Source of the DNA: an uncultured candidate division WWE3 bacterium
GTDB lineage: Bacteria > Patescibacteriota > WWE3 > UBA101185 > UBA10185
Direction: 5' to 3'
DNA length: 64,000 nt
NCBI GenBank assembly: GCA_903879985.1
Contig: CAIRNR010000007.1
Span: forward strand, 465,519 to 529,518
Part shown: one piece after another, positions 12,856-64,000 of the stretch
Position numbering within the stretch: the first letter of the stretch is position 1
How the letters are laid out: each line of letters starts with the position of its first letter
Made by a program: the position numbers and the translations under genes
The notes under the pieces: generated by a model
What the model saw: the letters and a program-made list of their open reading frames with translations, nothing else
Database searches by the model: none
What the model was told of the DNA's origin: nothing

Positions 12856-13737
12856 TTAGGCGAGCCTCTTTAGCGATTCTTCAATCAAACTTGGTAAGAG
12901 TTCGATATCTTCGTGAGTATAATCATAACCCAAAACGTTGAGACACGAAAAGACAATTCCTAAATCAGAATAGATTTTGTCGGCATATTGGCATGCGACC
13001 AAACTGTGAAGTAAAACATTTCCGCCAATTTCTCCAACTTTAGATTTTCCACAACCCATTGGACAGTTTGCGCACGATGGATAGGATGCTTCAAGCACAC
13101 TGACATCTTCCTTTCGTATCAAAATACTTTTGTATAACTGTTGGTATTTATCGAAATTTACGGGTTTAGCAATTTCTGTTCCCGTTATAACAATGCCTTT
13201 TAGTTTTTTTGCGCGTAATTCGTGTTCAAAATAATCTTCAGGTGTTGTGAAGTAACCATTTAAGCTGACTTTTGTTCTTATGCCGTCTTCAAGAAAGATA
13301 TCGCCCCGTTTTCCCGGCAGACCCAAAGATAAAATATCTGTAATGCCGTCTTTAAATACCACATTTGTATTTTGAATATCCAGTATAACTTCCTGTTCTG
13401 ATTTTCCGTAAATAACAATGGCATCAAGTCCTGCGTATTTTATGCGTAAAGACAGATTACCGCCGATATAAATATCTTCTATTACGCCATCGTTGTTTAA
13501 GACAATTGAAGTTTTTGAAGCGTAAGGAAAAAATCCGTTGAATGGTCCTACCGATAAAACAATTGGTTCTTTATCAAAATGTGATTCCATTAACTTTAGT
13601 CCCAGTCCTACGCCGCCGATGTATTTGTTAAATTCCTTATACGTTTTGGCAACCGCGGTTTGGTCAGTTAAGTTTATTTCTAAAACTTTTTTAGCTGTTA
13701 AATCCACTTGTTTCTCCGTTATCCTCAACCAACTCAA
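12856..13737 (-). CDS. Truncated aldehyde:ferredoxin oxidoreductase (AOR)-family protein: AOR N-domain plus start of domain 2 with a CxxCxxxC motif
   Basis: 293 aa. MSWLRI..VDLT / IGGVGLGLKLM / PIVLSVGPFNG / LRIKYAGLDAIVIYGKSEQEVILDI aligns to the AOR N-terminal domain ([23 protein letters not shown]). CANCPMGCGKS matches the AOR [4Fe-4S] ligand motif CYACPIGCGR. The protein ends about 300 aa before a full AOR would. Confidence 0.6.
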   Translation of the reverse strand: MSWLRITEKQVDLTAKKVLEINLTDQTAVAKTYKEFNKYIGGVGLGLKLMESHFDKEPIVLSVGPFNGFFPYASKTSIVLNNDGVIEDIYIGGNLSLRIKYAGLDAIVIYGKSEQEVILDIQNTNVVFKDGITDILSLGLPGKRGDIFLEDGIRTKVSLNGYFTTPEDYFEHELRAKKLKGIVITGTEIAKPVNFDKYQQLYKSILIRKEDVSVLEASYPSCANCPMGCGKSKVGEIGGNVLLHSLVACQYADKIYSDLGIVFSCLNVLGYDYTHEDIELLPSLIEESLKRLA

Positions 13738-24703: not shown

Positions 24704-25639
24704 ATGTCAACACATTTGGCTCAGTCACACTTGTGGGGAAAATTCAAAGAGGAATATGGAACTCCTGTAGTGTATGCAGGAAACGTTATGTATACAAAGC
24801 ATAAAATCCCTTTTACAGGTTCTTTTTATGCATATTGCCCGCGTGTTAATCCTTCCGATGTTAACTTTGAAGAATTAAAAAAATCCATGGAAGAAAACAA
24901 TTGTATTGCACTTCACTTTGACGTTCCTAATGTAGCCAAAGATTCTCCCGAGGCAGAAACCGCATTGGCTATTTTAGAAAAGTATTGTGAGAAATCCCCA
25001 CGCGCTGAGTTTGCAAAAGGAAACTTTATTATTGACCTAACTAAATCGGAAGAAGAATTACTCGCTGGAATGCACAACAAGCAACGTTACAACATGGGAT
25101 TGGCACAGCGCAAAGGTGTAACAGTTAAGGAAGGTTCCGCTGACGAAGATTTTGATGTCTTTTTTGAGATTTATAAACAAACGGGCATGCGTCAAAAGTT
25201 TTATTACCGTCCAAAAGCTTATTTGCACGAGGTTTTTAAATCATTTCGTTCCGACGGTTTAGCTTATATTTTAACAGCGTATTACGAGGGAAAACCTTTA
25301 GCATCTTGGATGTTATTAAAATACGAAGATGTTTTATATTATCCCTACGGTGGTTCCACAGAAGAATTTAAAAATGTGTTTGCCAGCACGCTTGTTGGTT
25401 GGGAAGCTATTAAACTTGGTAAGCGCTTAAACTGCACTTTGTTTGATATGTGGGGAGCGACAGAAGATATGAGCGATACTACGGATACATACTACGGCTT
25501 TTCCTTATTTAAACAAAAGTTTGGGGCTAAACATATTCAATATATTGATTCTTACGATTTTATAATTAACCCATCACTCTACAAAATGTTTAATATGGCC
25601 AACGGTGTTCGTTGGAAGATTTTGAATGTTTTACGATGA
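24704..25639 (+). CDS. FemAB-family aminoacyl-tRNA-dependent peptidyltransferase (paralog 1)
   Basis: 311 aa with a FemX-like pattern (HNKQRYN, LYYPYGGS). TGaTATACT sits 6 nt before the ATG (leaderless type). Confidence 0.7.
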   Translation: MSTHLAQSHLWGKFKEEYGTPVVYAGNVMYTKHKIPFTGSFYAYCPRVNPSDVNFEELKKSMEENNCIALHFDVPNVAKDSPEAETALAILEKYCEKSPRAEFAKGNFIIDLTKSEEELLAGMHNKQRYNMGLAQRKGVTVKEGSADEDFDVFFEIYKQTGMRQKFYYRPKAYLHEVFKSFRSDGLAYILTAYYEGKPLASWMLLKYEDVLYYPYGGSTEEFKNVFASTLVGWEAIKLGKRLNCTLFDMWGATEDMSDTTDTYYGFSLFKQKFGAKHIQYIDSYDFIINPSLYKMFNMANGVRWKILNVLR

Positions 25640-26538
25640 AGCACGCGCTTGATATTAGACAAACGGACGAATGGGGAAAATATTTAGCATCAATGGGTTG
25701 GAAGCAGTTTAGAACTGCGCGAGGCATTGGTGTTGTTGTTAAGAAAATGTTTTTTGGTAGTGTTATAAAAGTGCAACGTCCCCAAGATGTAGTTCTCCAA
25801 GATTTACGCGATATAGATGAAATTTGTGTAAAGAATAAAGGTTTGTTTATTAAGTTTGAACCCGATTTTAAACAAGATTTAAGTATTTTTAAAACCGCCG
25901 GCTACGAATTCAGTTATAGTCCATTGTGTCCTCCAACAACTATTTATATTGATCTCACAAAAAGCGAGGAAGAGTTATGGGCCGCAGTTTCTCATAGTGG
26001 AAAATATTCTATTAATCGTGCTCGTCGTGAAGGTGCGCACGTTAAATTTTTTCCACGCCCCGACACCGAAATTTTAAAAAAATACCATGCAGTGAATGTT
26101 GAGACCGGAAAGCTAAAAAAGTTTTATGTACAGCCTTTTAAAGAGCAATTAGCTAAGGTTGCGGCGTTTGGTGACAACTGCGTGCTAGCCGCTGTTTACG
26201 ATGCGGATGAAAACATGGTTGGCGGAAAAATATTTTTAGGCGGTGGTGATATGGTTTTATACAACACAGGTGGCACGACAGCTAAGGGGCGTCACCAGAA
26301 GTCTGGATATTTGTTAGTTTGGGAAACATTTTTATATTTTAAAAAGCTTGGTTATTCAGTTATGGATCTCGAAGGTAAAGACGACAAACGCTTTCCTTTA
26401 TTTACAGGAAATTGGGGGGGTTTTAGTCACTTTAAGGAAAAGTTTAACGGTGAAACTGTAGAATTTCCTATTCCTTACATTAAGTTTTTGAGTCCTGTTA
26501 TGGAAATTATGGCGAAGGCTACGCCGATGGGGCTTTAG
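25636..26538 (+). CDS. FemAB-family peptidyltransferase (paralog 2)
   Basis: 300 aa from the internal Met, which forms an ATGA overlap with paralog 1. The domain pattern is the same (SGKYSINRARREG, VLYNTGG). Confidence 0.7.
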   Translation: MKHALDIRQTDEWGKYLASMGWKQFRTARGIGVVVKKMFFGSVIKVQRPQDVVLQDLRDIDEICVKNKGLFIKFEPDFKQDLSIFKTAGYEFSYSPLCPPTTIYIDLTKSEEELWAAVSHSGKYSINRARREGAHVKFFPRPDTEILKKYHAVNVETGKLKKFYVQPFKEQLAKVAAFGDNCVLAAVYDADENMVGGKIFLGGGDMVLYNTGGTTAKGRHQKSGYLLVWETFLYFKKLGYSVMDLEGKDDKRFPLFTGNWGGFSHFKEKFNGETVEFPIPYIKFLSPVMEIMAKATPMGL

Positions 26539-41614: not shown

Positions 41615-42856
41615 TTAACTCAGACTTTTTATAATATCTAAAACTTCTTGTGGTGTAGTACAGACTTTTAAAATATCGCGTTCGCCGGCTGGAATTAACA
41701 TCGTTTCTTCAATAGTATCCAACAGTTTATTCCAAAAGGCACCGTACAATACTATTGTTTTACTGTTAGGCTCATGAATCCATGATGACACCCATGTCAT
41801 ACCAAATTCACTTAACGTACCAATGCTTCCCTTAAAAACAATATGAACGTCTGCATTTTGTAGCATAACTTTTGTTCTGTCAAAATAATCGAGTGTAAGT
41901 ATTTCCTCATCAAAATCATTTCCTTTACCAACACCCTCGTAATGTCTTTTTGGTTTGTTTGGATGATAGGTTATTGCTAATGCTCTTTTACCGGCAGCAT
42001 GTGCACCTTTTGTAGCTGCTTCCATAACGCCTGGGCCGCCTCCATTAACTACTTCGTAATTGTTTGCGGCTAAGACTTTTGCAACTTCAAAAGCATCTTT
42101 ATATGGTTGATCAGTACTTTGCCATGAAGCTCCTCCCAAAAAAGCAATTTTCTTAGCAAGTATTGGTTTAACATCGTATAAAGAACTTATTTGGTTTGCG
42201 TCAGTTGTTTTAGTCATATTTGTAAATTCCAAATACTTTTGTCTTGGGTTTGTATCTCTAACTATAGCAGAACCAATTACGGCACTGTCAATTCCTGTTT
42301 GCAACAATTGTTTAATATTTTGTTCCTTAATTCCGCCATCAACCTGTACCGGCATTTCGGGATACTTTTTTTTAAACTGTGTGATTTTTGTTAATACTTC
42401 AGGCAAAAATGGATGACCTTGTCCGCCCGGCTTCACACTTAAAAACTGAACGTAATCGGCCGCATCCATAACTTTATCCAGTGCTTCCAAAGGTGTTTCA
42501 GGATTTATAGCTACACCTGCAACATATTTAAGTTCGTGTGCGCGTGATAAAAATTCTTTAATATCATTATTTTCAATATGTGCGCAAATTTTAATAACAT
42601 TTGGTATTGCTTGTTTCAGGTAATCCATTGGATTTTCAACCATCAAATCGACTTCAAAAAATTGCTCAGAAAACATGGAAATCTTTTCTATTTCTAAAAA
42701 GGTTTTACCCTCAACAAACTGTCCATCAACAATATCAATTTGAACGAGTGGCGCGTCTCCGGCAAGTAGACTTAGTTTTCTTTCCACTTCGGCAATATCG
42801 GGCTCAAGTATGGTTGGGATTATTTTAGGAAAGAAGTTTTGGGCAGTTTTATTCAT
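41615..42856 (-). CDS. Fusion: ribulose-phosphate 3-epimerase (N) plus LOG/TIGR00730-family Rossmann domain (C)
   Basis: N-terminal half: IDIVDGQFVEG, VDLMVENP, LSVKPGGQGHPF, VQVDGGI (Rpe). C-terminal half: NGGGPGVMEAATKGA and FKGSIGTLSEF (LOG family). Confidence 0.75.
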   Translation of the reverse strand: MNKTAQNFFPKIIPTILEPDIAEVERKLSLLAGDAPLVQIDIVDGQFVEGKTFLEIEKISMFSEQFFEVDLMVENPMDYLKQAIPNVIKICAHIENNDIKEFLSRAHELKYVAGVAINPETPLEALDKVMDAADYVQFLSVKPGGQGHPFLPEVLTKITQFKKKYPEMPVQVDGGIKEQNIKQLLQTGIDSAVIGSAIVRDTNPRQKYLEFTNMTKTTDANQISSLYDVKPILAKKIAFLGGASWQSTDQPYKDAFEVAKVLAANNYEVVNGGGPGVMEAATKGAHAAGKRALAITYHPNKPKRHYEGVGKGNDFDEEILTLDYFDRTKVMLQNADVHIVFKGSIGTLSEFGMTWVSSWIHEPNSKTIVLYGAFWNKLLDTIEETMLIPAGERDILKVCTTPQEVLDIIKSLS

Positions 42857-45788: not shown

Positions 45789-47576
45789 TTAATGTCTTTG
45801 AGTATTAAATAAAGTAATAACTTCGCTCACGGTTGTTGCTTCCGTTGCTTTTTTATCGTCTCTAAACTTTAATAAACGAGGAAATCTTAAGGCGTAACCG
45901 GCCGTATGGTTTTGGGAAATACTTATTTCGTCGGCGCCAATTTCCACAACAATTTTTGGCTTAACAAGTACGTCGGGGAGAAGTGGTTTACTAATGTCTA
46001 CGTTTGCTGGAAGTTTTTCTATTTTAAGTTTGTCGGCCATCTTTTTAAGCTTAATCCAATCATCTTCTTTTAGTCCTGTGCCTATTTTTGATACTGTTTT
46101 AAAGGAATCACTTTTTTCGTCATACACGCCAACCATAAATCCTCCGATACCAAACTTTGATCTAACACCTTTGCCGTTGTAATAACCTAACACCACGCAA
46201 TCAATAGAATCTCTCAATAACTTTTCGTCAGCTTTTTTAAGCTTTATCCATGAGTATGACCTTGCTCCGGCTTGATAAGGATCTTCAGGACTTTTAACGA
46301 GCAAACCTTCCAATCCTTTTTCCTTGGCAATTTCAAAGTATTCAAGTAAATCTTCAAACAAACTTGTTTCCATATGTTCATCAACAACAATTGTGTCCCC
46401 AGGTTTTATTACTTTACTTAGAATTTCACGCCTTTCCCGTAACGGTAAATGGATCAGAGATTTACCGTTTAAGTACAAAATATCAAAAACAAAATATTTT
46501 AAAGGAATGTTTTTGGCTGTCTCCGCAACATCATGCTTTCGTTTACGCGTAATAGTTTCTTGAAATGGTAAAAAAGCCCCGGTTTCTCGGTTGTATCCAA
46601 TTGCTTCGCCATCCAAGATAATTGAGTCGGCATCAATTTGTTTCATTGCCGCGTCAGTTAAGTCTGGGTATTGGTGAGTAGACTCTTCGAGATTCCTGGT
46701 AAATGTTTTAATCAGGTATTTGTTCGAATCTTTTTTCTCGGCTTCAAATAAACCTACAGCTTCCTCTTCTTTTGTAGTGTGTTTTTTGTTTTTATCAAAA
46801 TGAAGTTGTACGCGGGTGCCGTCAAATTTGAATTCGGCCCAAACGTTTTTAATTCTTTCCATGGCTTCTTCCATTCCGCTTACTCGTTGTGCTTTTTGAG
46901 AGAGCACTGGAACTCCTGTTTCGATTCTTATTTTAGCCAGACCTTCGATTCCGTTTTCCTTTATACTTTTGGCTACTAAACCAATGTCGGGATGAATGTT
47001 GTAAACAGCTTCAATATCTTCTGCGATAGTTTTGTTTTCCAAAAACTGTGCAAGCGCGGCTATAATAGTAAGCTCGGTAAATCCTAATCTGATAGTGCCT
47101 AACATTATTCTTACAGCGTATTTGGTGGATATTTTGTCGAGTAACTTAAGTAGATCTGCAGCTTTTCGCACTTTACTGTCAGTAGATCCCGTTCCGCTGG
47201 TTTGTGCCAGTACCATTAATTTTTCGTATACATCGCTAATACTTAGATTCTTTCCACGTTGGTCTGATTGTAACTGTTCGGCCACATTTCCTAGATCGCC
47301 TTCTTGAGCATAAAGTTTTGAAATTCTGTCGGCAATATTAGTTTCTTGGGCACTGGCAAAAGTGTATTCCAAAACCTTGGCTACCATTTTGTCCGCGATG
47401 TTAAAGTTTTCAGATTCAAAAGGTGCTTTTAAATATCCAGAAGCCAAATAAATAGCTTTGTCAGTTTCTTCTGGTTCAAGTTCTTGGATTAATTCGGTAA
47501 GAATACTGGTTATCTCTAGTCGTTTGGAAGTTTCTTCTAGGCGTTGTAAGTATTTAGCGAATTTGGAGAAATGCAT
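45789..47576 (-). CDS. ATP-dependent DNA ligase (archaeal/eukaryotic type)
   Basis: 595 aa with the KxDG adenylation motif AEFKFDGTRVQL, a DNA-binding N-domain and an OB domain. Confidence 0.9.
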   Translation of the reverse strand: MHFSKFAKYLQRLEETSKRLEITSILTELIQELEPEETDKAIYLASGYLKAPFESENFNIADKMVAKVLEYTFASAQETNIADRISKLYAQEGDLGNVAEQLQSDQRGKNLSISDVYEKLMVLAQTSGTGSTDSKVRKAADLLKLLDKISTKYAVRIMLGTIRLGFTELTIIAALAQFLENKTIAEDIEAVYNIHPDIGLVAKSIKENGIEGLAKIRIETGVPVLSQKAQRVSGMEEAMERIKNVWAEFKFDGTRVQLHFDKNKKHTTKEEEAVGLFEAEKKDSNKYLIKTFTRNLEESTHQYPDLTDAAMKQIDADSIILDGEAIGYNRETGAFLPFQETITRKRKHDVAETAKNIPLKYFVFDILYLNGKSLIHLPLRERREILSKVIKPGDTIVVDEHMETSLFEDLLEYFEIAKEKGLEGLLVKSPEDPYQAGARSYSWIKLKKADEKLLRDSIDCVVLGYYNGKGVRSKFGIGGFMVGVYDEKSDSFKTVSKIGTGLKEDDWIKLKKMADKLKIEKLPANVDISKPLLPDVLVKPKIVVEIGADEISISQNHTAGYALRFPRLLKFRDDKKATEATTVSEVITLFNTQRH

Positions 47577-56802: not shown

Positions 56803-58176
56803 GTGACGTCTATTAATCATGGAGAAACGGCCATATGCTTACGGACGTTGTATAATGACCTCGTGTCTACTCTAATAGAACAACTACAACTCAGAAACCA
56901 AGACCTTTCAATTGCCGAGGTGTCCGGAATTCTATTTATATTAGTAAACCAAGCTACTACAACAAATAATGAACTAGTTCGCTTTACAGGGTTACCAAAA
57001 GAAACATTAAAGAAGTTTAAAAACACGTTAACTACCTTTTTAGATGATTCAAATGAAGATTTAGTGACATTTACTCAAGAAGGTCGCACGCAAATTGCTG
57101 CTGCTAAACCACAACCATATGCTTGGTCTCTTAAGGAATACTCAAATCCTGCACTAGAAGAAAAAATTGAGGCAATCCGTAAAGAGATGAACGCAACGGC
57201 CGAAAGAAGCTTTGACCAATTTTATGCAACTTCAAAGACTACGGTTTCCAAAGTCATGTTATTAAATGATAAAGGTCAAATTACAAACAAACGTATCGCT
57301 GTTTTAGGCGATGATGACCTAGTAAGTATTTGTCTGGGTCTTGCCGATGATACATATAACAGTATTACTGTGTTTGAAATTGACGTTAACTTAATCGAAA
57401 AACTTAAGCATATTGTTGAAAAGTATGATCTAAAGAACATTAAGTTTGAACAATATGATGTTAGAAAAGAATTAAAGAGCACTTTTGTGGGGACTTTTGA
57501 TGTGGTTATAACAGACCCTCCTTATACAAAGTCGGGAATAAAGCTGTTTTTAAATCGCGCTGTTGAATTGATTGATAAGAAAAGTACTGAGGGTGCAATA
57601 TTTTTATATTACGGAAATAGTTTTAAATCGCCTGAAAAGTGGATAAAAATTCAGGAAATAATAACTTCGTTTGGATTAGTCATCGAGGACAAGATTAACA
57701 AGTTTTCCAAATATTTTGGGGCGGAGTCAATTGGAAGTACCAGTTCTGTTTATGTTTTAAGACCTACAAAAGCAACAGCTTCTAAACCTGAAATTGCCTT
57801 ATCTACTCAAATTTATACTTTTGAAGATACAAAAGAAGAAAAGTTTCCATTCGTGGATCATGTTGTTGTTAAGGTTTTTAAGGTGTCTACCACAATATTA
57901 AATTCTAAGCGTGTATTGCTCTCAAAGCTCCAAGATCTTTGTACTAGCCACAAATTAAAGGTAGTTGATACCAAGATTACTTCGTTTAGCCCAAAGGGAT
58001 TGTCTATTACATATATTCTTTCAAATTCTAACCTTGTGATTCATACTTGGCCGGAGTTTAATGCTCTTCATATAGATTTAGTGACTTGTGCGCCTATTTA
58101 TAACAAGGAAGCTTTATCTAAAACCATTTCTGATTTATTCGGCACGAAATACATTGAAATCAGCTTCGTAGAATGA
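56803..58176 (+). CDS. Fusion: BpsA/DUF43-like aminopropyltransferase-like domain plus class-1b S-adenosylmethionine decarboxylase (SpeH) domain
   Basis: Middle region carries GDDDLVS and DPPYT motifs. The C-terminal 110 aa align to SpeH (ILSNSNLVIHTWPEFNALHIDLVTC versus [25 protein letters not shown]). Confidence 0.6.
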   Translation: MTSINHGETAICLRTLYNDLVSTLIEQLQLRNQDLSIAEVSGILFILVNQATTTNNELVRFTGLPKETLKKFKNTLTTFLDDSNEDLVTFTQEGRTQIAAAKPQPYAWSLKEYSNPALEEKIEAIRKEMNATAERSFDQFYATSKTTVSKVMLLNDKGQITNKRIAVLGDDDLVSICLGLADDTYNSITVFEIDVNLIEKLKHIVEKYDLKNIKFEQYDVRKELKSTFVGTFDVVITDPPYTKSGIKLFLNRAVELIDKKSTEGAIFLYYGNSFKSPEKWIKIQEIITSFGLVIEDKINKFSKYFGAESIGSTSSVYVLRPTKATASKPEIALSTQIYTFEDTKEEKFPFVDHVVVKVFKVSTTILNSKRVLLSKLQDLCTSHKLKVVDTKITSFSPKGLSITYILSNSNLVIHTWPEFNALHIDLVTCAPIYNKEALSKTISDLFGTKYIEISFVE

Positions 58177-58469
58177 TCCGGAAGTCTTGACTTTACCCAT
58201 TTATATTGATATTAATACAACACTAGTGTAATATCACTTGTCGTACGTTGATAACTAAATAGTTAAGAGCAAAAAAGCACAAATCTTTTTAAATCGCTTT
58301 AGCCGGCGATGTACAAAAGATACAATTTATTGCCACGTCCCAAGTGGTAGTAAATAAAATTGCCATAGCCAATATGGCGACTTTCAATTCGCAAGAATCG
58401 AAAGGCAAGAAGAATCGACCAAACCAAAACGTTTATACGCTATTGACGCATTAATAAACGTTTTTTTCT

Positions 58470-59906
<1,437 letters not shown>

Positions 59907-60310
59907 CTAAGGGAGAAAATCCGTATTTTTGATTGAAGGACCATTGATCTAGTACTTGCTATTAGGAAATGCCTTTGAAATATAAAGTACACTCAACATT
60001 GGATTAGCTCTAAAATGTTGTTTTAATTAGCTGTCGTCAAAACGCCTTTAGACAGCAGAGTAGGTTTTAAAGCGAGCCTAAACTTTTACAACCGGAAGAT
60101 CCTTCTTGCCTTTTGGCACTTGAAATTGAAATTTGTGTAATTAACTCTTAACTTGAATTTAGAAAAAAGCATCCTTAATTGGATGCTTTTTTTTTGAGCT
60201 TTAGCGAGAAAAACGTCAGCAGACATTTTGTGGCTATTATTGAAAACCAGCTGTTCTGGTGGTATAAACTTATTCTTGATACAAAAATCTATGTGAGGAG
60301 GAGAGCGATA

Positions 60311-60943
60311 ATGGAAAAAAACAATTTGCCTGTAGACGAAGCAGCTGGTTTGGTAACGAGAATAATAGAGCAGATAAAAGGAGCAAAGGGCGCGGCTTTC
60401 ACGTATGGAAATATCCGGAAATACCAGGCGCAAGCGGGTATTGGCCACACCGGCGCAAAATTCAATCGAACCGAATGGGAATGTGCGTGGCGGACAGTGT
60501 TGGATATGCCTGATATTAAAATCCTGTGCGGTAGCGGTCTTCACGCCAGTGTTTATTACTTACCTGGGGCTAAGGATGCTACCAAAAATGGTAAAAATGG
60601 CAAAATTATCCAACCGGCTGTTGATATGACTCCGGTTATCGAGGCTCAACCCCCAGCCGCTAAGCAAGAATCAGCGCCTACGGTTGCAGTTCCTGCACGT
60701 CGCCCATTGGTTGAAAAAAGGCAGCCCACGGTTAAAACCAAACGTGCGGTGGTAACAAAGAAAGATCATGTAATCCTGTCCGGCGTGCAAGTAACGTGGG
60801 AAGGCACCATTCCTCTGACGCTGTCGCTGGAAAAAGGACAAACAATCCAGGTGGAGCAGCACAATAGAGATGGGGAAAGTCTTGGCATGTTTACACTAAA
60901 TGGTCCATGCACGATTACTCTGAAAAAAGTTATCCGGGAATAA
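60311..60943 (+). CDS. Hypothetical protein, GC-rich (about 50%) gene lying between 16S and 23S
   Basis: 210 aa from the Met preceded by a GAGGAGG SD, with a terminator downstream. I recognise no family. Confidence 0.5.
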   Translation: MEKNNLPVDEAAGLVTRIIEQIKGAKGAAFTYGNIRKYQAQAGIGHTGAKFNRTEWECAWRTVLDMPDIKILCGSGLHASVYYLPGAKDATKNGKNGKIIQPAVDMTPVIEAQPPAAKQESAPTVAVPARRPLVEKRQPTVKTKRAVVTKKDHVILSGVQVTWEGTIPLTLSLEKGQTIQVEQHNRDGESLGMFTLNGPCTITLKKVIRE

Positions 60944-60969
60944 TTTAAAATCTGGTTAACAATCAATAG

Positions 60970-61008
60970 GCGGTCGCTTGTTTTAATAACATCCGGCCGC
61001 TTTTTTTT
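60970..61008 (+). terminator. Intrinsic terminator
   Basis: gcggtcg...cggccgc stem followed by tttttttt. Confidence 0.5.
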
Positions 61009-61021
61009 GTGTTTGGGTAAA

Positions 61022-61098
<77 letters not shown>

Positions 61099-61158
61099 TC
61101 ACCCGTGAATAGTACGTGCATGATAACATAAAACTAGGGTCGATGGTATACTGGTGGC

Positions 61159-61800
61159 ATGAAATCAGGCAAGCACTATGCTCTAAATTTCTTAATTGTT
61201 GCGTTATTATTAGTGGCTTTTTACTTGTGGTTTAACCAATCGTTAAAACAACAAACCCTAAAGAATTATTCCAAATACAAAATACAGGAAGCGTTGTTTA
61301 CCGCAGATTGCACGATTGCCGTAAAAATAAAGGATGAAACTTTGTCCCTAAAAACAGGTTATCAAGATCTTGGAATTTCATGTTTAGATCCAAAATTTAT
61401 CGTTAAAATTTCTCCTTCCGGGAAATATTTGGCTCATGTTGATATAGCAGGTAGTGCACCACAATTGCGTACATTTTTTACAGAGAAAACTAAATATCCT
61501 ACTTCCGATGTTTTCCTAACCTTTCCACCAGATACCGATTACGACTTTTCCTTACTGCCGGGCGATAAATTGGCTGTTTTGACTAGAGCTACAGCAACTA
61601 TTCCCGCTAAACTTACGGTTTACGATTTACCCTTAAGTTATAAAAATTATCCCAATGTGTTTAATACTCAAACAATTGTTCAAGAGCAGAATTTTCCTAA
61701 ATCAGCTAGCACCTACTGGTATGTTGAAACTGTCGACAAAACGAGTATAAGAATATTAGATAAAAACAAAGTCCCACTTGCCCAAATAAAACTAAACTAA
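61159..61800 (+). CDS. Signal-anchored hypothetical protein
   Basis: 213 aa with an N-terminal TM (ALNFLIVALLLVAFYLWF). Confidence 0.45.
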   Translation: MKSGKHYALNFLIVALLLVAFYLWFNQSLKQQTLKNYSKYKIQEALFTADCTIAVKIKDETLSLKTGYQDLGISCLDPKFIVKISPSGKYLAHVDIAGSAPQLRTFFTEKTKYPTSDVFLTFPPDTDYDFSLLPGDKLAVLTRATATIPAKLTVYDLPLSYKNYPNVFNTQTIVQEQNFPKSASTYWYVETVDKTSIRILDKNKVPLAQIKLN

Positions 61801-61801
61801 T

Positions 61802-62806
61802 ATGAATAAAAAAGTAAATCCTAGAATAGTTACTGTCGGTGGAGGTACCGGTACTTTTGTTGTTTTATCCGGACTCAAAGATTATCCCCTAAATTTGTCA
61901 TCTATTGTTACTATGATGGACTCTGGTGGGTCTACGGGTAGATTACGTGATCAGTTGGGTGTTTTACCGCCTGGTGACTTGCGACAAGCCTTGGTAGCGC
62001 TGTCAGATTCAAAAGAGATATGGCGCAAGCTTTTTACTTATCGTTTTGAGAGTGGTGACTTAAAAGGTCACAACTTTGGAAACATTTTTATTTCAGCTTT
62101 AGAAAAAATAACTGGTTCAACTGCAGAGGCTATTAATTTGGCAACCGAAATTCTGCAAACAAAAGGAAATGTTTATCCTGTGACACTTTCAAATTGCACA
62201 TTGTGTGCCGGCTATGCAGATGGTTCCGTGGTTGAAGGTGAATCTAACATTGAAGAAATAGTTAAAGAGGGAAATAAGATTACACGCATGTACTTAACTC
62301 CCTCCGCTGTAATGAATTTGGAGGCTAAAAAAGAGCTGGAAAACGCCGATTTCATCATATTTGGCCCTGGTGACCTGTACACAAGTATTATTCCAAATCT
62401 ACTGGTCGAAGGCATGCCAGAAGTTTTGGCTTATTCCAGGGCAAAAAAGATTTTTATATTAAATGTTATGACTCGGTATGGACAGACCGATGGTTTTAAA
62501 TCTACAGATTTTATTTTCGAACTGGAAAGATATTTAGGAGGTATTTCATTAGATTATATTTTCATTAACGAAACTCGCCCAAGTCAGGAGGTTTTAGACT
62601 GGTATAGAGAGGTAGATAAGGCTCATTTTGTAGAAGATACAACTTTTGGAGGCTATTTTGACAATAGAAAGATACTAAGAGGTGATTTTTTGTCCAAAAA
62701 TAGGGTCGTTCAAGCGGCAAACGATCATGTAAAAAGGAGCCTAATTCGGCATGATCCAGACAAGATAGCAGAGGCTATTTATAAGCTTGTTGACAGAGAA
62801 TTTTAA
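61802..62806 (+). CDS. YvcK/CofD-family (UPF0052, gluconeogenesis-factor-like) protein
   Basis: IVTVGGGTGTFVVLSGLK, MMDSGGSTGRLRD, LPPGDLRQALVAL. Confidence 0.8.
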   Translation: MNKKVNPRIVTVGGGTGTFVVLSGLKDYPLNLSSIVTMMDSGGSTGRLRDQLGVLPPGDLRQALVALSDSKEIWRKLFTYRFESGDLKGHNFGNIFISALEKITGSTAEAINLATEILQTKGNVYPVTLSNCTLCAGYADGSVVEGESNIEEIVKEGNKITRMYLTPSAVMNLEAKKELENADFIIFGPGDLYTSIIPNLLVEGMPEVLAYSRAKKIFILNVMTRYGQTDGFKSTDFIFELERYLGGISLDYIFINETRPSQEVLDWYREVDKAHFVEDTTFGGYFDNRKILRGDFLSKNRVVQAANDHVKRSLIRHDPDKIAEAIYKLVDREF

Positions 62807-62991
62807 TAATGGTACATATGTATTTACCTTTTAGGAATTCAACTTCCTCAGGACTTAGGTCCATTTCTTGGAGTCACAAAACTTCAAGGAAGCTCTGAAT
62901 ATCCAAGTCAAACGTGAAATATAAATAAGTTAGTAAATGCGCCTTGATGTATAAGCTTAGTGCTGATAGACTGTGTAAGCTTTATGCGTCG

Positions 62992-63068
62992 GGGCCGTTA
63001 GCTCAGTTGGCTAGAGCGCTACATTTGCAATGTAGAGGTCAGGAGTTCGATTCTCCTACGGTCCACCA
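62992..63068 (+). tRNA. tRNA-Ala (anticodon UGC), CCA encoded
   Basis: GGGCCGT-TA-GCTC-AGTTGGCTA-GAGC-G-CTACA-TTTGCAA-TGTAG-AGGTC-AGGAG-TTCGATT-CTCCT-ACGGTCC-A-CCA, including the G3:U70 Ala identity pair. Confidence 0.85.
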
Positions 63069-63404
63069 AAAAGGTTTCGATTTTTTGTTTTGAAAACGCA
63101 CTCGCAAAGCTCGCGAAGTTTTCTTCAACAAAAAATCTACGCCACTGTGTTAATGCAGGTTAGTGAAAAATGCTTTGTTTAAGATTCCGTACGGTGAGGT
63201 TTAAATACTTTGCCATACGAAACTTTAAACAAAGTTGCGATACATCGCAGCTCAAAGTTTCGACTACGTCGAAGCTTTGCCGCTCGCTATGCTCGCAGCA
63301 AAGTGGATCTTTGAAAACTGAACAGAAAGTATCCAACAATTGAAAAACTCACAAACTTGAGGATCATCTCCCAGCCTTGGCGAGATGGTCTGTAGGTTTT
63401 TTAG

Positions 63405-64000
<596 letters not shown>

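Follow-up and report, generated by a model that had tools for sequence, protein, structure and literature searches.

A BpsA-family aminopropyltransferase domain is fused to a class 1b S-adenosylmethionine decarboxylase domain in WWE3 and other Patescibacteria

Can a single gene take a cell with a very small genome from S-adenosylmethionine (SAM) to an aminopropylated product? The question is raised by an open reading frame (ORF) within a 64,000-nucleotide stretch of contig CAIRNR010000007.1, from an uncultured candidate division WWE3 bacterium; the whole of this stretch is called the window below. The ORF occupies 56803..58176 on the forward strand and runs unbroken from a GTG start for 457 amino acids as called. 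A preliminary description of the window, made from its sequence without database searches, proposed that the product joins an aminopropyltransferase of the BpsA/DUF43 family to a SAM decarboxylase (AdoMetDC), that such a polypeptide would be a compact polyamine synthase, and that an altered self-processing site left the formation of its pyruvoyl cofactor in question. Profile matches and homologues identify the whole ORF as a BpsA-like aminopropyltransferase followed by a class 1b AdoMetDC, and the fusion is real and conserved across a lineage. From the sequence features set out here we consider it likely that the product is a bifunctional enzyme, which would convert SAM to decarboxylated SAM (dcSAM) and then move the aminopropyl group to an amine acceptor.

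The two halves of the protein were recognized by profile, by sequence and by fold. Residues 120-324 matched Pfam BpsA_C (PF01861; E = 4.4e-42, 144.5 bits against a gathering cut-off of 27 bits) and residues 353-454 matched AdoMet_dc (PF02675; E = 2.3e-18, 66.9 bits against a cut-off of 25 bits). When PDB sequences were searched with phmmer, the branched-chain polyamine synthase of Thermococcus kodakarensis (Tk-BpsA; 5xnc) was found at E = 2.4e-27, with BpsA homologues from Pyrococcus and Thermus also among the best matches, and the Thermotoga maritima AdoMetDC (1tlu) was found at E = 3.6e-7 using the whole protein and at 3.9e-8 using the domain alone (1tlu/1vr7). An AlphaFold2 model built from 120 homologues was confident (mean predicted local distance difference test score, pLDDT, 89.3; predicted template modelling score 0.76) and weak only at residues 1-21 and in a linker at about 341-350. 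Foldseek matched residues ~1-340 of this model to whole BpsA chains (5xnc, 2qm3 and 6j27) over about 350 columns with E-values of 1e-22 to 1e-17, with 5xnc at E = 7.6e-23 over 359 columns (~22% identity); because the alignment spans the whole BpsA chain, the N-terminal BpsA domain is included in the match. The C-terminal domain matched 1vr7/1tlu with a template modelling score of 0.81 relative to the target and a root-mean-square deviation of 2.1 Å over 109 columns.

Read from its N-terminus, the product therefore comprises four segments, all encoded on the forward strand. A helical domain equivalent to the BpsA N-terminal domain by its Foldseek match (residues 1-119, 56803..57159; conserved Gly42 and Thr62-Gly63-x-Pro65-Lys66-Glu67) precedes the Rossmann-type BpsA_C catalytic domain (residues 120-324, 57160..57774). 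A flexible, acidic inter-domain linker follows (residues 325-352, 57775..57858), in which a conserved IYTFE..KEEKFPFVDH leads into the class 1b pyruvoyl AdoMetDC domain (residues 353-457, 57859..58173), the latter identified by PF02675, by its fold and by a gapless alignment with 1tlu. The similarity of the first half to BpsA is strong and the His and Cys contexts of the second are intact (HTWPE, and TC with Cys429), so that the two family assignments of the preliminary description hold.

That description had left it to a survey of related genomes whether the fusion recurs. It does: more than 120 homologues share the architecture, an identical protein is encoded on about 15 independent contigs, and both Pfam domains are present in all 120 of the homologues listed, which are 44-96% identical and 409-497 residues long. 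With one genome per species scanned, the fusion was found at 62 genome loci, mostly labelled WWE3, Saccharibacteria or Patescibacteria and including the closed WWE3 genome CP006914 and the curated complete genome MEWB01000001. When the decarboxylase domain by itself served as query in an exhaustive HMMER search, about 30 fusion clusters at 50% identity were returned, and unfused relatives (110-140 residues) surfaced only at E ~1e-17 and weaker. The 16S ribosomal RNA (rRNA) gene of the window reaches up to ~95% identity, within the segment that aligns best, with the 16S genes beside related loci, which places the window in a WWE3-type Patescibacterium. A G+C content of 36-40% and a gene content that includes glycolysis and pentose-phosphate genes, MurJ, FemAB and an ATP-dependent ligase agree with that origin.

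The hosts bear on how the BpsA family is understood. According to a 2026 review, bpsA orthologues are restricted to thermophiles and BpsA is read as a heat adaptation (PMC12979288). The fusion, in contrast, is carried mostly by mesophilic Patescibacteria, known from metagenome-assembled genomes of the Rifle aquifer, digesters and marine biofilm and, in the case of CP006914, from aquifer sediment; BpsA-family genes therefore also occur outside thermophiles.

What remains of the decarboxylase active site was established by alignment with the T. maritima enzyme, which is gapless over residues 7-85, and by counting conservation over the 120 listed fusion homologues, the sample used for all such counts below. 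Ser63, His68 and Cys83 in T. maritima numbering are the residues needed for self-processing and catalysis (PMC10407285), and their counterparts are Ser409 (120/120), His414 (119/120) and Cys429 (120/120; 58087..58089, forward strand), the last being the catalytic proton donor. Ser55, which is also grouped with the required residues, corresponds to Ser401, at a position that is always Ser or Thr, and Phe395, Gly399, Trp416, Pro417 (115/120) and Glu418 (120/120) are likewise invariant or nearly so. Two residues of the HTWPE motif (residues 414-418, 58042..58056, forward strand), which begins with His414, speak to the substrate. All bona fide AdoMetDCs have the Pro of this motif, which SpeD-derived arginine decarboxylases have lost (PMC10407285), and both hydroxyls of the SAM ribose are bound by the Glu four residues past the catalytic His (PMC1282579). 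In Desulfotignum, whose SpeD-derived ornithine decarboxylase domain has been validated by experiment, the corresponding stretch reads TQLIETSLISGHFAN, W-P-E being lost and GHFAN standing instead (PMC10407285, Fig. S5). Because the Pro and the ribose-binding Glu are both kept, the domain looks like a SAM decarboxylase and not like the neofunctionalized SpeDA or SpeDC.

The preliminary description had remarked that the Glu-Ser dipeptide at which class 1b enzymes cleave themselves is replaced here by Asn-Ser. The peptide on which it relied, LSNSNLVIHTWPEFNALHIDLVTCA, is located at 58018-58092, and the predicted self-cleavage site within it, Asn408/Ser409 (58024..58029, forward strand), falls exactly on T. 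maritima Glu62-Ser63; the replacement is real. It is not an anomaly. Within the fusion family the residue preceding the processing Ser (position -1) is Asn in 77 sequences, Ser in 18, Thr in 12, Gln in 5 and Ala in 1, and never Glu, with the Ser itself invariant, while among 106 unfused relatives it is Glu in 58 and Gln, Ser, Thr, Ala, Asn or another residue in 48 (45%). A standalone relative with a Ser-Ser-His site (P0147) passes the SpeH equivalog profile TIGR03330 at 82.8 bits, and an AdoMetDC domain fused to a SpeE-type transferase (P0258) has Thr-Ser-His. It is the carbonyl of the -1 residue, and not the side chain, that takes part in serinolysis. The cleavage site of E. coli SpeD is Lys111-Ser112, and other pyruvoyl enzymes have Gly-Ser or Ser-Ser there. 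Furthermore, a validated SpeDC self-cleaves at Thr-Ser (PMC10407285). As the -1 residue varies in the fusions, in standalone relatives and in this SpeDC, Asn-Ser was rejected as a sign of dead or unusual processing, and a Glu before the processing Ser is not a defining feature of class 1b AdoMetDC. The Asn-Ser site is ordinary; the point of note is the fusion and its conservation throughout the lineage. The true oddities of the protein, described below, lie elsewhere: a three-position switch in the decarboxylase domain, a SpeH score under the equivalog cut-off, the loss of Tk-BpsA Glu259, an invariant DPPY and a near-universal place just 5′ of the 16S rRNA gene.

On the transferase side, the two motifs quoted in the preliminary description are present, GDDD at residues 169-172 (57307..57318, forward strand) and DPPYT at residues 238-242 (57514..57528, forward strand), and both GDDD and DPPY are invariant in all 120 homologues. 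GDDD corresponds to Gly157-Asp160 of Tk-BpsA, where Asp159 and Asp160 hold the aminopropyl amine of dcSAM and where the acceptor is activated by Asp225, Glu259, Tyr290 and Tyr316 (PMC12979288). Asp225 is matched by Asp238 and Tyr290 by Tyr304, both invariant, as is the Asp of the FDQ motif (Tk Asp126); Tyr241 replaces Glu228 of the BpsA DPPE. Tyr316 lies outside the alignable region, with Tyr338 as a candidate equivalent, and Glu259 is without a counterpart, aligning to Phe274 or dropping into an insertion. A conserved block specific to the fusion family, Y-x-G-A-E-S-I-G-S-x-S-S-L-Y, spans residues 304-317. The donor side, as judged by alignment, is BpsA-like and conserved, and the acceptor side appears remodelled, since Glu259 has been lost from it; a branched product should consequently not be assumed. 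The proposed link to the BpsA family stands, and what does not follow from it is that the protein makes branched polyamines. That mesophilic Patescibacteria nevertheless produce branched or tertiary-amine polyamines, in which case BpsA chemistry would not be an adaptation to heat, is possible but doubtful.

Tk-BpsA is a ping-pong enzyme whose flexible acidic cluster near the C-terminus, Glu339-Glu345, acts as carrier of the aminopropyl group (PMC12979288). In the fusion, the linker after the catalytic domain has conserved Glu341, Glu345 and Glu346 together with Asp342, and it is modelled with low confidence, as expected of a flexible segment, although the spacing of these residues is unlike that of the Tk-BpsA tail. 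By position and character the acidic linker may be an analogue of the archaeal aminopropyl carrier.

According to the model that we favour, the C-terminal domain would cleave itself between Asn408 and Ser409, converting Ser409 into the pyruvoyl cofactor and yielding a chain of 408 residues (as called), on which the remaining part of the decarboxylase would stay attached to the transferase, and a free 49-residue pyruvoyl chain. The pyruvoyl domain would decarboxylate SAM to dcSAM, the BpsA-family domain would bind dcSAM via GDDD, and the aminopropyl group would be passed to an amine acceptor with release of methylthioadenosine (MTA), possibly by way of the conserved acidic linker as in the Tk-BpsA reaction. 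A di- or polyamine, either scavenged or endogenous, is the probable acceptor, and the product is not necessarily branched. We infer the coupling of the two steps by Rosetta-stone logic, for bacterial fusions of AdoMetDC to SpeE-type aminopropyltransferases are known, and experiments have shown that such proteins have both activities (PMC12803844, which cites Green et al. 2011 Mol Microbiol 81:1109); SpeE-AdoMet_dc proteins with the domain order of the WWE3 protein exist as well (P0246 and P0258). The compact polyamine synthase envisaged in the preliminary description is, on this reasoning, the mechanism best supported.

Several observations weigh against a bifunctional enzyme of this kind, beginning with the missing counterpart of Glu259. 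The decarboxylase domain scores 57.7 bits with TIGR03330, below that profile's cut-off of 75.65, and all five BpsA-fused domains tested fall at 48-61 bits, whereas SpeE-fused domains reach 88-101 bits and three of four standalone relatives 78-83. Consistent with these low scores, the decarboxylase domain of WWE3-type fusions (57859-58173 in the window) carries a coupled, clade-specific switch that affects three positions conserved elsewhere: Glu11 (T. maritima numbering, as for the next two) has become Lys or Arg, His47 mostly Thr, and His64, the residue directly after the processing Ser, Asn or Ser. The ancestral Glu/Asp11 and His64, and usually His47, are kept in the SpeE fusions, in most unfused relatives and in a deep-branching BpsA fusion (P0208), from which it follows that the fusion is older than the switch. 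(His423, at T. maritima Ala77, was also considered as a fusion-specific change and set aside, because His is the majority residue in standalone relatives as well, 80/106.) In addition, tblastn detected no SpeE-like and no second AdoMetDC-like gene in the window and 663 kb of related loci, the sequence that this search covered, and no gene for synthesis or import of an acceptor was found by Pfam among 22 window ORFs or among the conserved neighbours of related loci. The ORFs so scanned comprised the fusion, its two upstream neighbours and 20 others, and include genes of glycolysis, the pentose-phosphate pathway, cell-wall metabolism and DNA repair; apart from the fusion itself, none has a link to polyamines.

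The neighbourhood of the gene suggested an alternative with respect to the acceptor. Upstream of the fusion gene lie MnmA and, divergently oriented, a 767-residue M23 peptidase. Downstream, after 290 nucleotides and on the same strand, lies the 16S rRNA gene (58466..59906), and a sequence match to a sigma-70-like promoter in the interval (58206..58234, forward strand) is a possible rRNA promoter. In 49 of the 62 related loci (L006-L067) a 16S gene lies downstream in the same orientation, at a distance of 122-1752 nucleotides, and 10 of the other 13 loci are on contigs that end within ~550 nucleotides of the fusion gene; the M23 peptidase is found in 51 of the 62 and MnmA in 44. No polyamine genes flank the fusion in the window, in three relatives or in the 62 loci, where the conserved neighbours are MnmA, the M23 peptidase and 16S.

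It could be argued from this arrangement that the BpsA-like domain uses the dcSAM made in cis to modify a macromolecule or some other metabolite (rRNA, transfer RNA (tRNA), a protein amine or a cell-envelope component), an alternative that we regard as improbable. The invariant DPPY is of the motif IV type that Pfam and NCBIfam tie to N-methyltransferases; the protein also matches N6-adenineMlase (27.3 bits, cut-off 23.2), Cons_hypoth95/RsmD and MTS weakly; and the closest structures after BpsA are those of METTL5, an rRNA m6A methyltransferase, and PH1948, a putative RNA methyltransferase. The lack of Glu259, the 16S gene directly downstream in 49 of 62 loci and the want of polyamine genes nearby would also suit a macromolecular acceptor. 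In its most provocative form, in which the protein would be a self-sufficient aminopropylation module acting on rRNA or other RNA, the idea draws on the invariant DPPY, the rRNA methyltransferases among the fold neighbours (METTL5, RsmD-like) and the 16S adjacency, the last of which is the chief reason for keeping it in view; we consider it a long shot. BpsA itself shares the fold, the N-terminal domain and a DPPE motif, so these are family traits and not evidence for nucleic acid as substrate. Moreover, the whole block of MnmA, divergent M23 peptidase, fusion and 16S is syntenic across WWE3-type genomes, and the deep-branching fusion P0208 is not beside rRNA and lies next to other genes, on which grounds the rRNA adjacency is probably inherited gene order. 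To our knowledge no aminopropylated nucleic acid made by such a route has been described, which further weighs against a macromolecular acceptor.

The P0208 locus (L068, 9300-11616) has its own arrangement: after the fusion gene, in the same orientation, come genes for an ABC exporter-type transporter (586 residues) and a GNAT acetyltransferase (182 residues). From this one locus there is a hint that the product may be acetylated or exported.

A second alternative concerns the decarboxylase, which might have been neofunctionalized in the manner of SpeDA or SpeDC so as to decarboxylate arginine, ornithine or another amino acid and thereby supply the acceptor, with dcSAM coming from elsewhere. 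Neofunctionalized homologues of SpeD occur widely, the candidate phyla radiation included (PMC10407285), the sub-cut-off SpeH score and the clade-specific substitutions could be read in the same way, and the -1 residue is Thr in 12 of the 120 fusion members, as it is in SpeDC. Against this stand the retained HTWPE, with the AdoMetDC-marking Pro and the ribose-binding Glu, and the absence of those SpeDC diagnostics that can be located in Fig. S5 (two of the four, which are Gln, Thr, Phe and Tyr), position -5 being Tyr404 and not Gln, and the residue after the His being Thr415 and not Phe. A dcSAM source in the form of a second AdoMetDC homologue was not found in the window and the 663 kb of related loci, that being the scope of the search, and an aminopropyltransferase without such a source would be useless in genomes below 1 Mb. 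We judge a change of substrate to be quite improbable.

It is highly improbable that the decarboxylase domain is catalytically dead and retained solely for structure or dimerization, as in animal spermine synthase, whose N-terminal domain derives from AdoMetDC. Precedents exist in human spermine synthase (PMC12803844) and in the degraded domain of a Victivallis SpeD-SpeDC fusion (PMC10407285), and a score below the equivalog cut-off would be expected of such a domain. However, Ser409, His414, Glu418, Cys429, Gly399 and Phe395 vary hardly or not at all among sequences that are 41-56% identical overall, and it is exactly those residues that degraded domains lose (PMC10407285). Finally, the idea that the fusion is an artefact, whether of a frameshift, of misassembly or of reading two neighbouring genes as one, has practically no chance of being right, being refuted by the uninterrupted ORF, its recurrence on independent contigs and in 62 genomes, the number of homologues and the conserved linker.

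How, then, does the protein for which we favour a bifunctional role compare with the systems already characterized? With Tk-BpsA it shares the two-domain fold over ~350 residues, GDDD, the Asp of DPP, the FDQ Asp, the Tyr at Tk Tyr290 (Tyr304 here) and, in position and character, a flexible acidic segment after the catalytic domain; it differs in being fused to an AdoMetDC, in reading DPPY where BpsA has DPPE or DPVE, in lacking Glu259 and in having its own block at residues 304-317. With the class 1b AdoMetDCs of T. maritima (TM0655) and B. subtilis (SpeD) it shares the equivalents of Ser63, His68, Cys83, Ser55, Phe49, Gly53, Pro71 and Glu72. It departs from them at Glu62, where Asn is ordinary variation, at the three switch positions and in its sub-cut-off TIGR03330 score, as well as in its predicted chain arrangement, in which the non-pyruvoyl beta chain would stay on the transferase and the 49-residue pyruvoyl chain would be free. 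SpeDA and SpeDC resemble it in superfamily, in a non-Glu residue before the processing Ser and in their occurrence within the candidate phyla radiation; unlike them, it keeps the Pro and Glu of HTWPE and is without GHFAN and the locatable SpeDC Gln and Phe.

The bacterial SpeE-type fusions likewise combine dcSAM synthesis with aminopropyl transfer in one polypeptide. Their transferase belongs to PF01564 (Spermine_synth), which has no Pfam match in the WWE3 protein, and their AdoMetDC is N-terminal, whereas here a PF01861 transferase is followed by a C-terminal AdoMetDC. Two further proteins found in the course of this work, P0246 (407 residues) and P0258 (472 residues), have SpeE N-terminal and AdoMet_dc C-terminal, the reverse of the published order, and both of their decarboxylase domains pass TIGR03330; we found no published description of this order. 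As a separate observation, a 400-residue protein of Candidatus Thorarchaeota (P0171, RLI52977.1) consists of a PP-loop ATPase (QueC/ThiI/ATP_bind_3-like) and, at its C-terminus, an AdoMet_dc domain in which the site reads Asn-Ser-His.

The annotated GTG start of the fusion gene is probably too far 5′, because homologues, which are mostly 430-445 residues long, align only from about residue 16-21 and because residues 1-21 are disordered in the AlphaFold2 model (pLDDT <50); these residues are probably not translated. Better in-frame candidates are possibly TTG at 56848 and GTG at 56863. An extended -10-like sequence, TGTATAAT, is located at 56849-56856 and ends 7 nucleotides before GTG 56863, a placement that might fit a leaderless messenger RNA starting at that codon. 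The choice of start codon alters none of the remaining conclusions.

Some other features of the window deserve record. Its rRNA operon is split, with the 16S gene (58466-59906) and the 23S gene (from 63409) lying ~3.5 kb apart and protein-coding genes between them; this spacer (59907-63408) holds hypothetical ORFs at 60179-60943 and 61159-61800, a CofD/YvcK-family gene at 61802-62806 (CofD follows in relatives too), and tRNA genes at 61031-61104 on the reverse strand and 62992-63065 on the forward strand. At 41615-42856 on the reverse strand, a 413-residue product unusually fuses a ribulose-phosphate 3-epimerase (residues 11-198) to a LOG/SLOG 'lysine decarboxylase-like' domain (residues 236-407). 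A 293-residue product at 12856-13737 on the reverse strand, adjoining a triose-phosphate isomerase-like gene and glycolytic genes, matches only the AFOR_N domain of aldehyde:ferredoxin oxidoreductase (residues 17-130). Two tandem FemAB-family genes (311 and 308 residues) lie at 24704-26538 on the forward strand, and a three-domain ATP-dependent DNA ligase of 595 residues is encoded at 45789-47576 on the reverse strand.

The architecture of the fusion is already visible in databases, NCBI naming such products 'bis-aminopropyl spermidine synthase family protein' and JGI naming both halves. A search of the literature found no paper describing a BpsA-AdoMetDC fusion, the 2026 review of BpsA makes no mention of one (PMC12979288), and the paper on the closed WWE3 genome does not mention polyamine synthesis for WWE3. 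The protein is a new relative of the known AdoMetDC-aminopropyltransferase fusions and represents a third, independent way of joining these activities. A pyruvoyl cofactor on a free 49-residue chain, as predicted here, would be an unusual topology, and if the acceptor were after all a macromolecule, the reaction would be a previously unrecognized kind of dcSAM-dependent modification. The fusion also widens the reach of the BpsA family beyond thermophiles, contrary to the current review (PMC12979288). WWE3 and other Patescibacteria have genomes below 1 Mb with very sparse biosynthesis. If the proposed activity is correct, the ability to make an aminopropylated product from SAM with one gene would be among the few biosynthetic capacities that they have kept, and its conservation in genomes so sparse would imply that the product matters to these cells.

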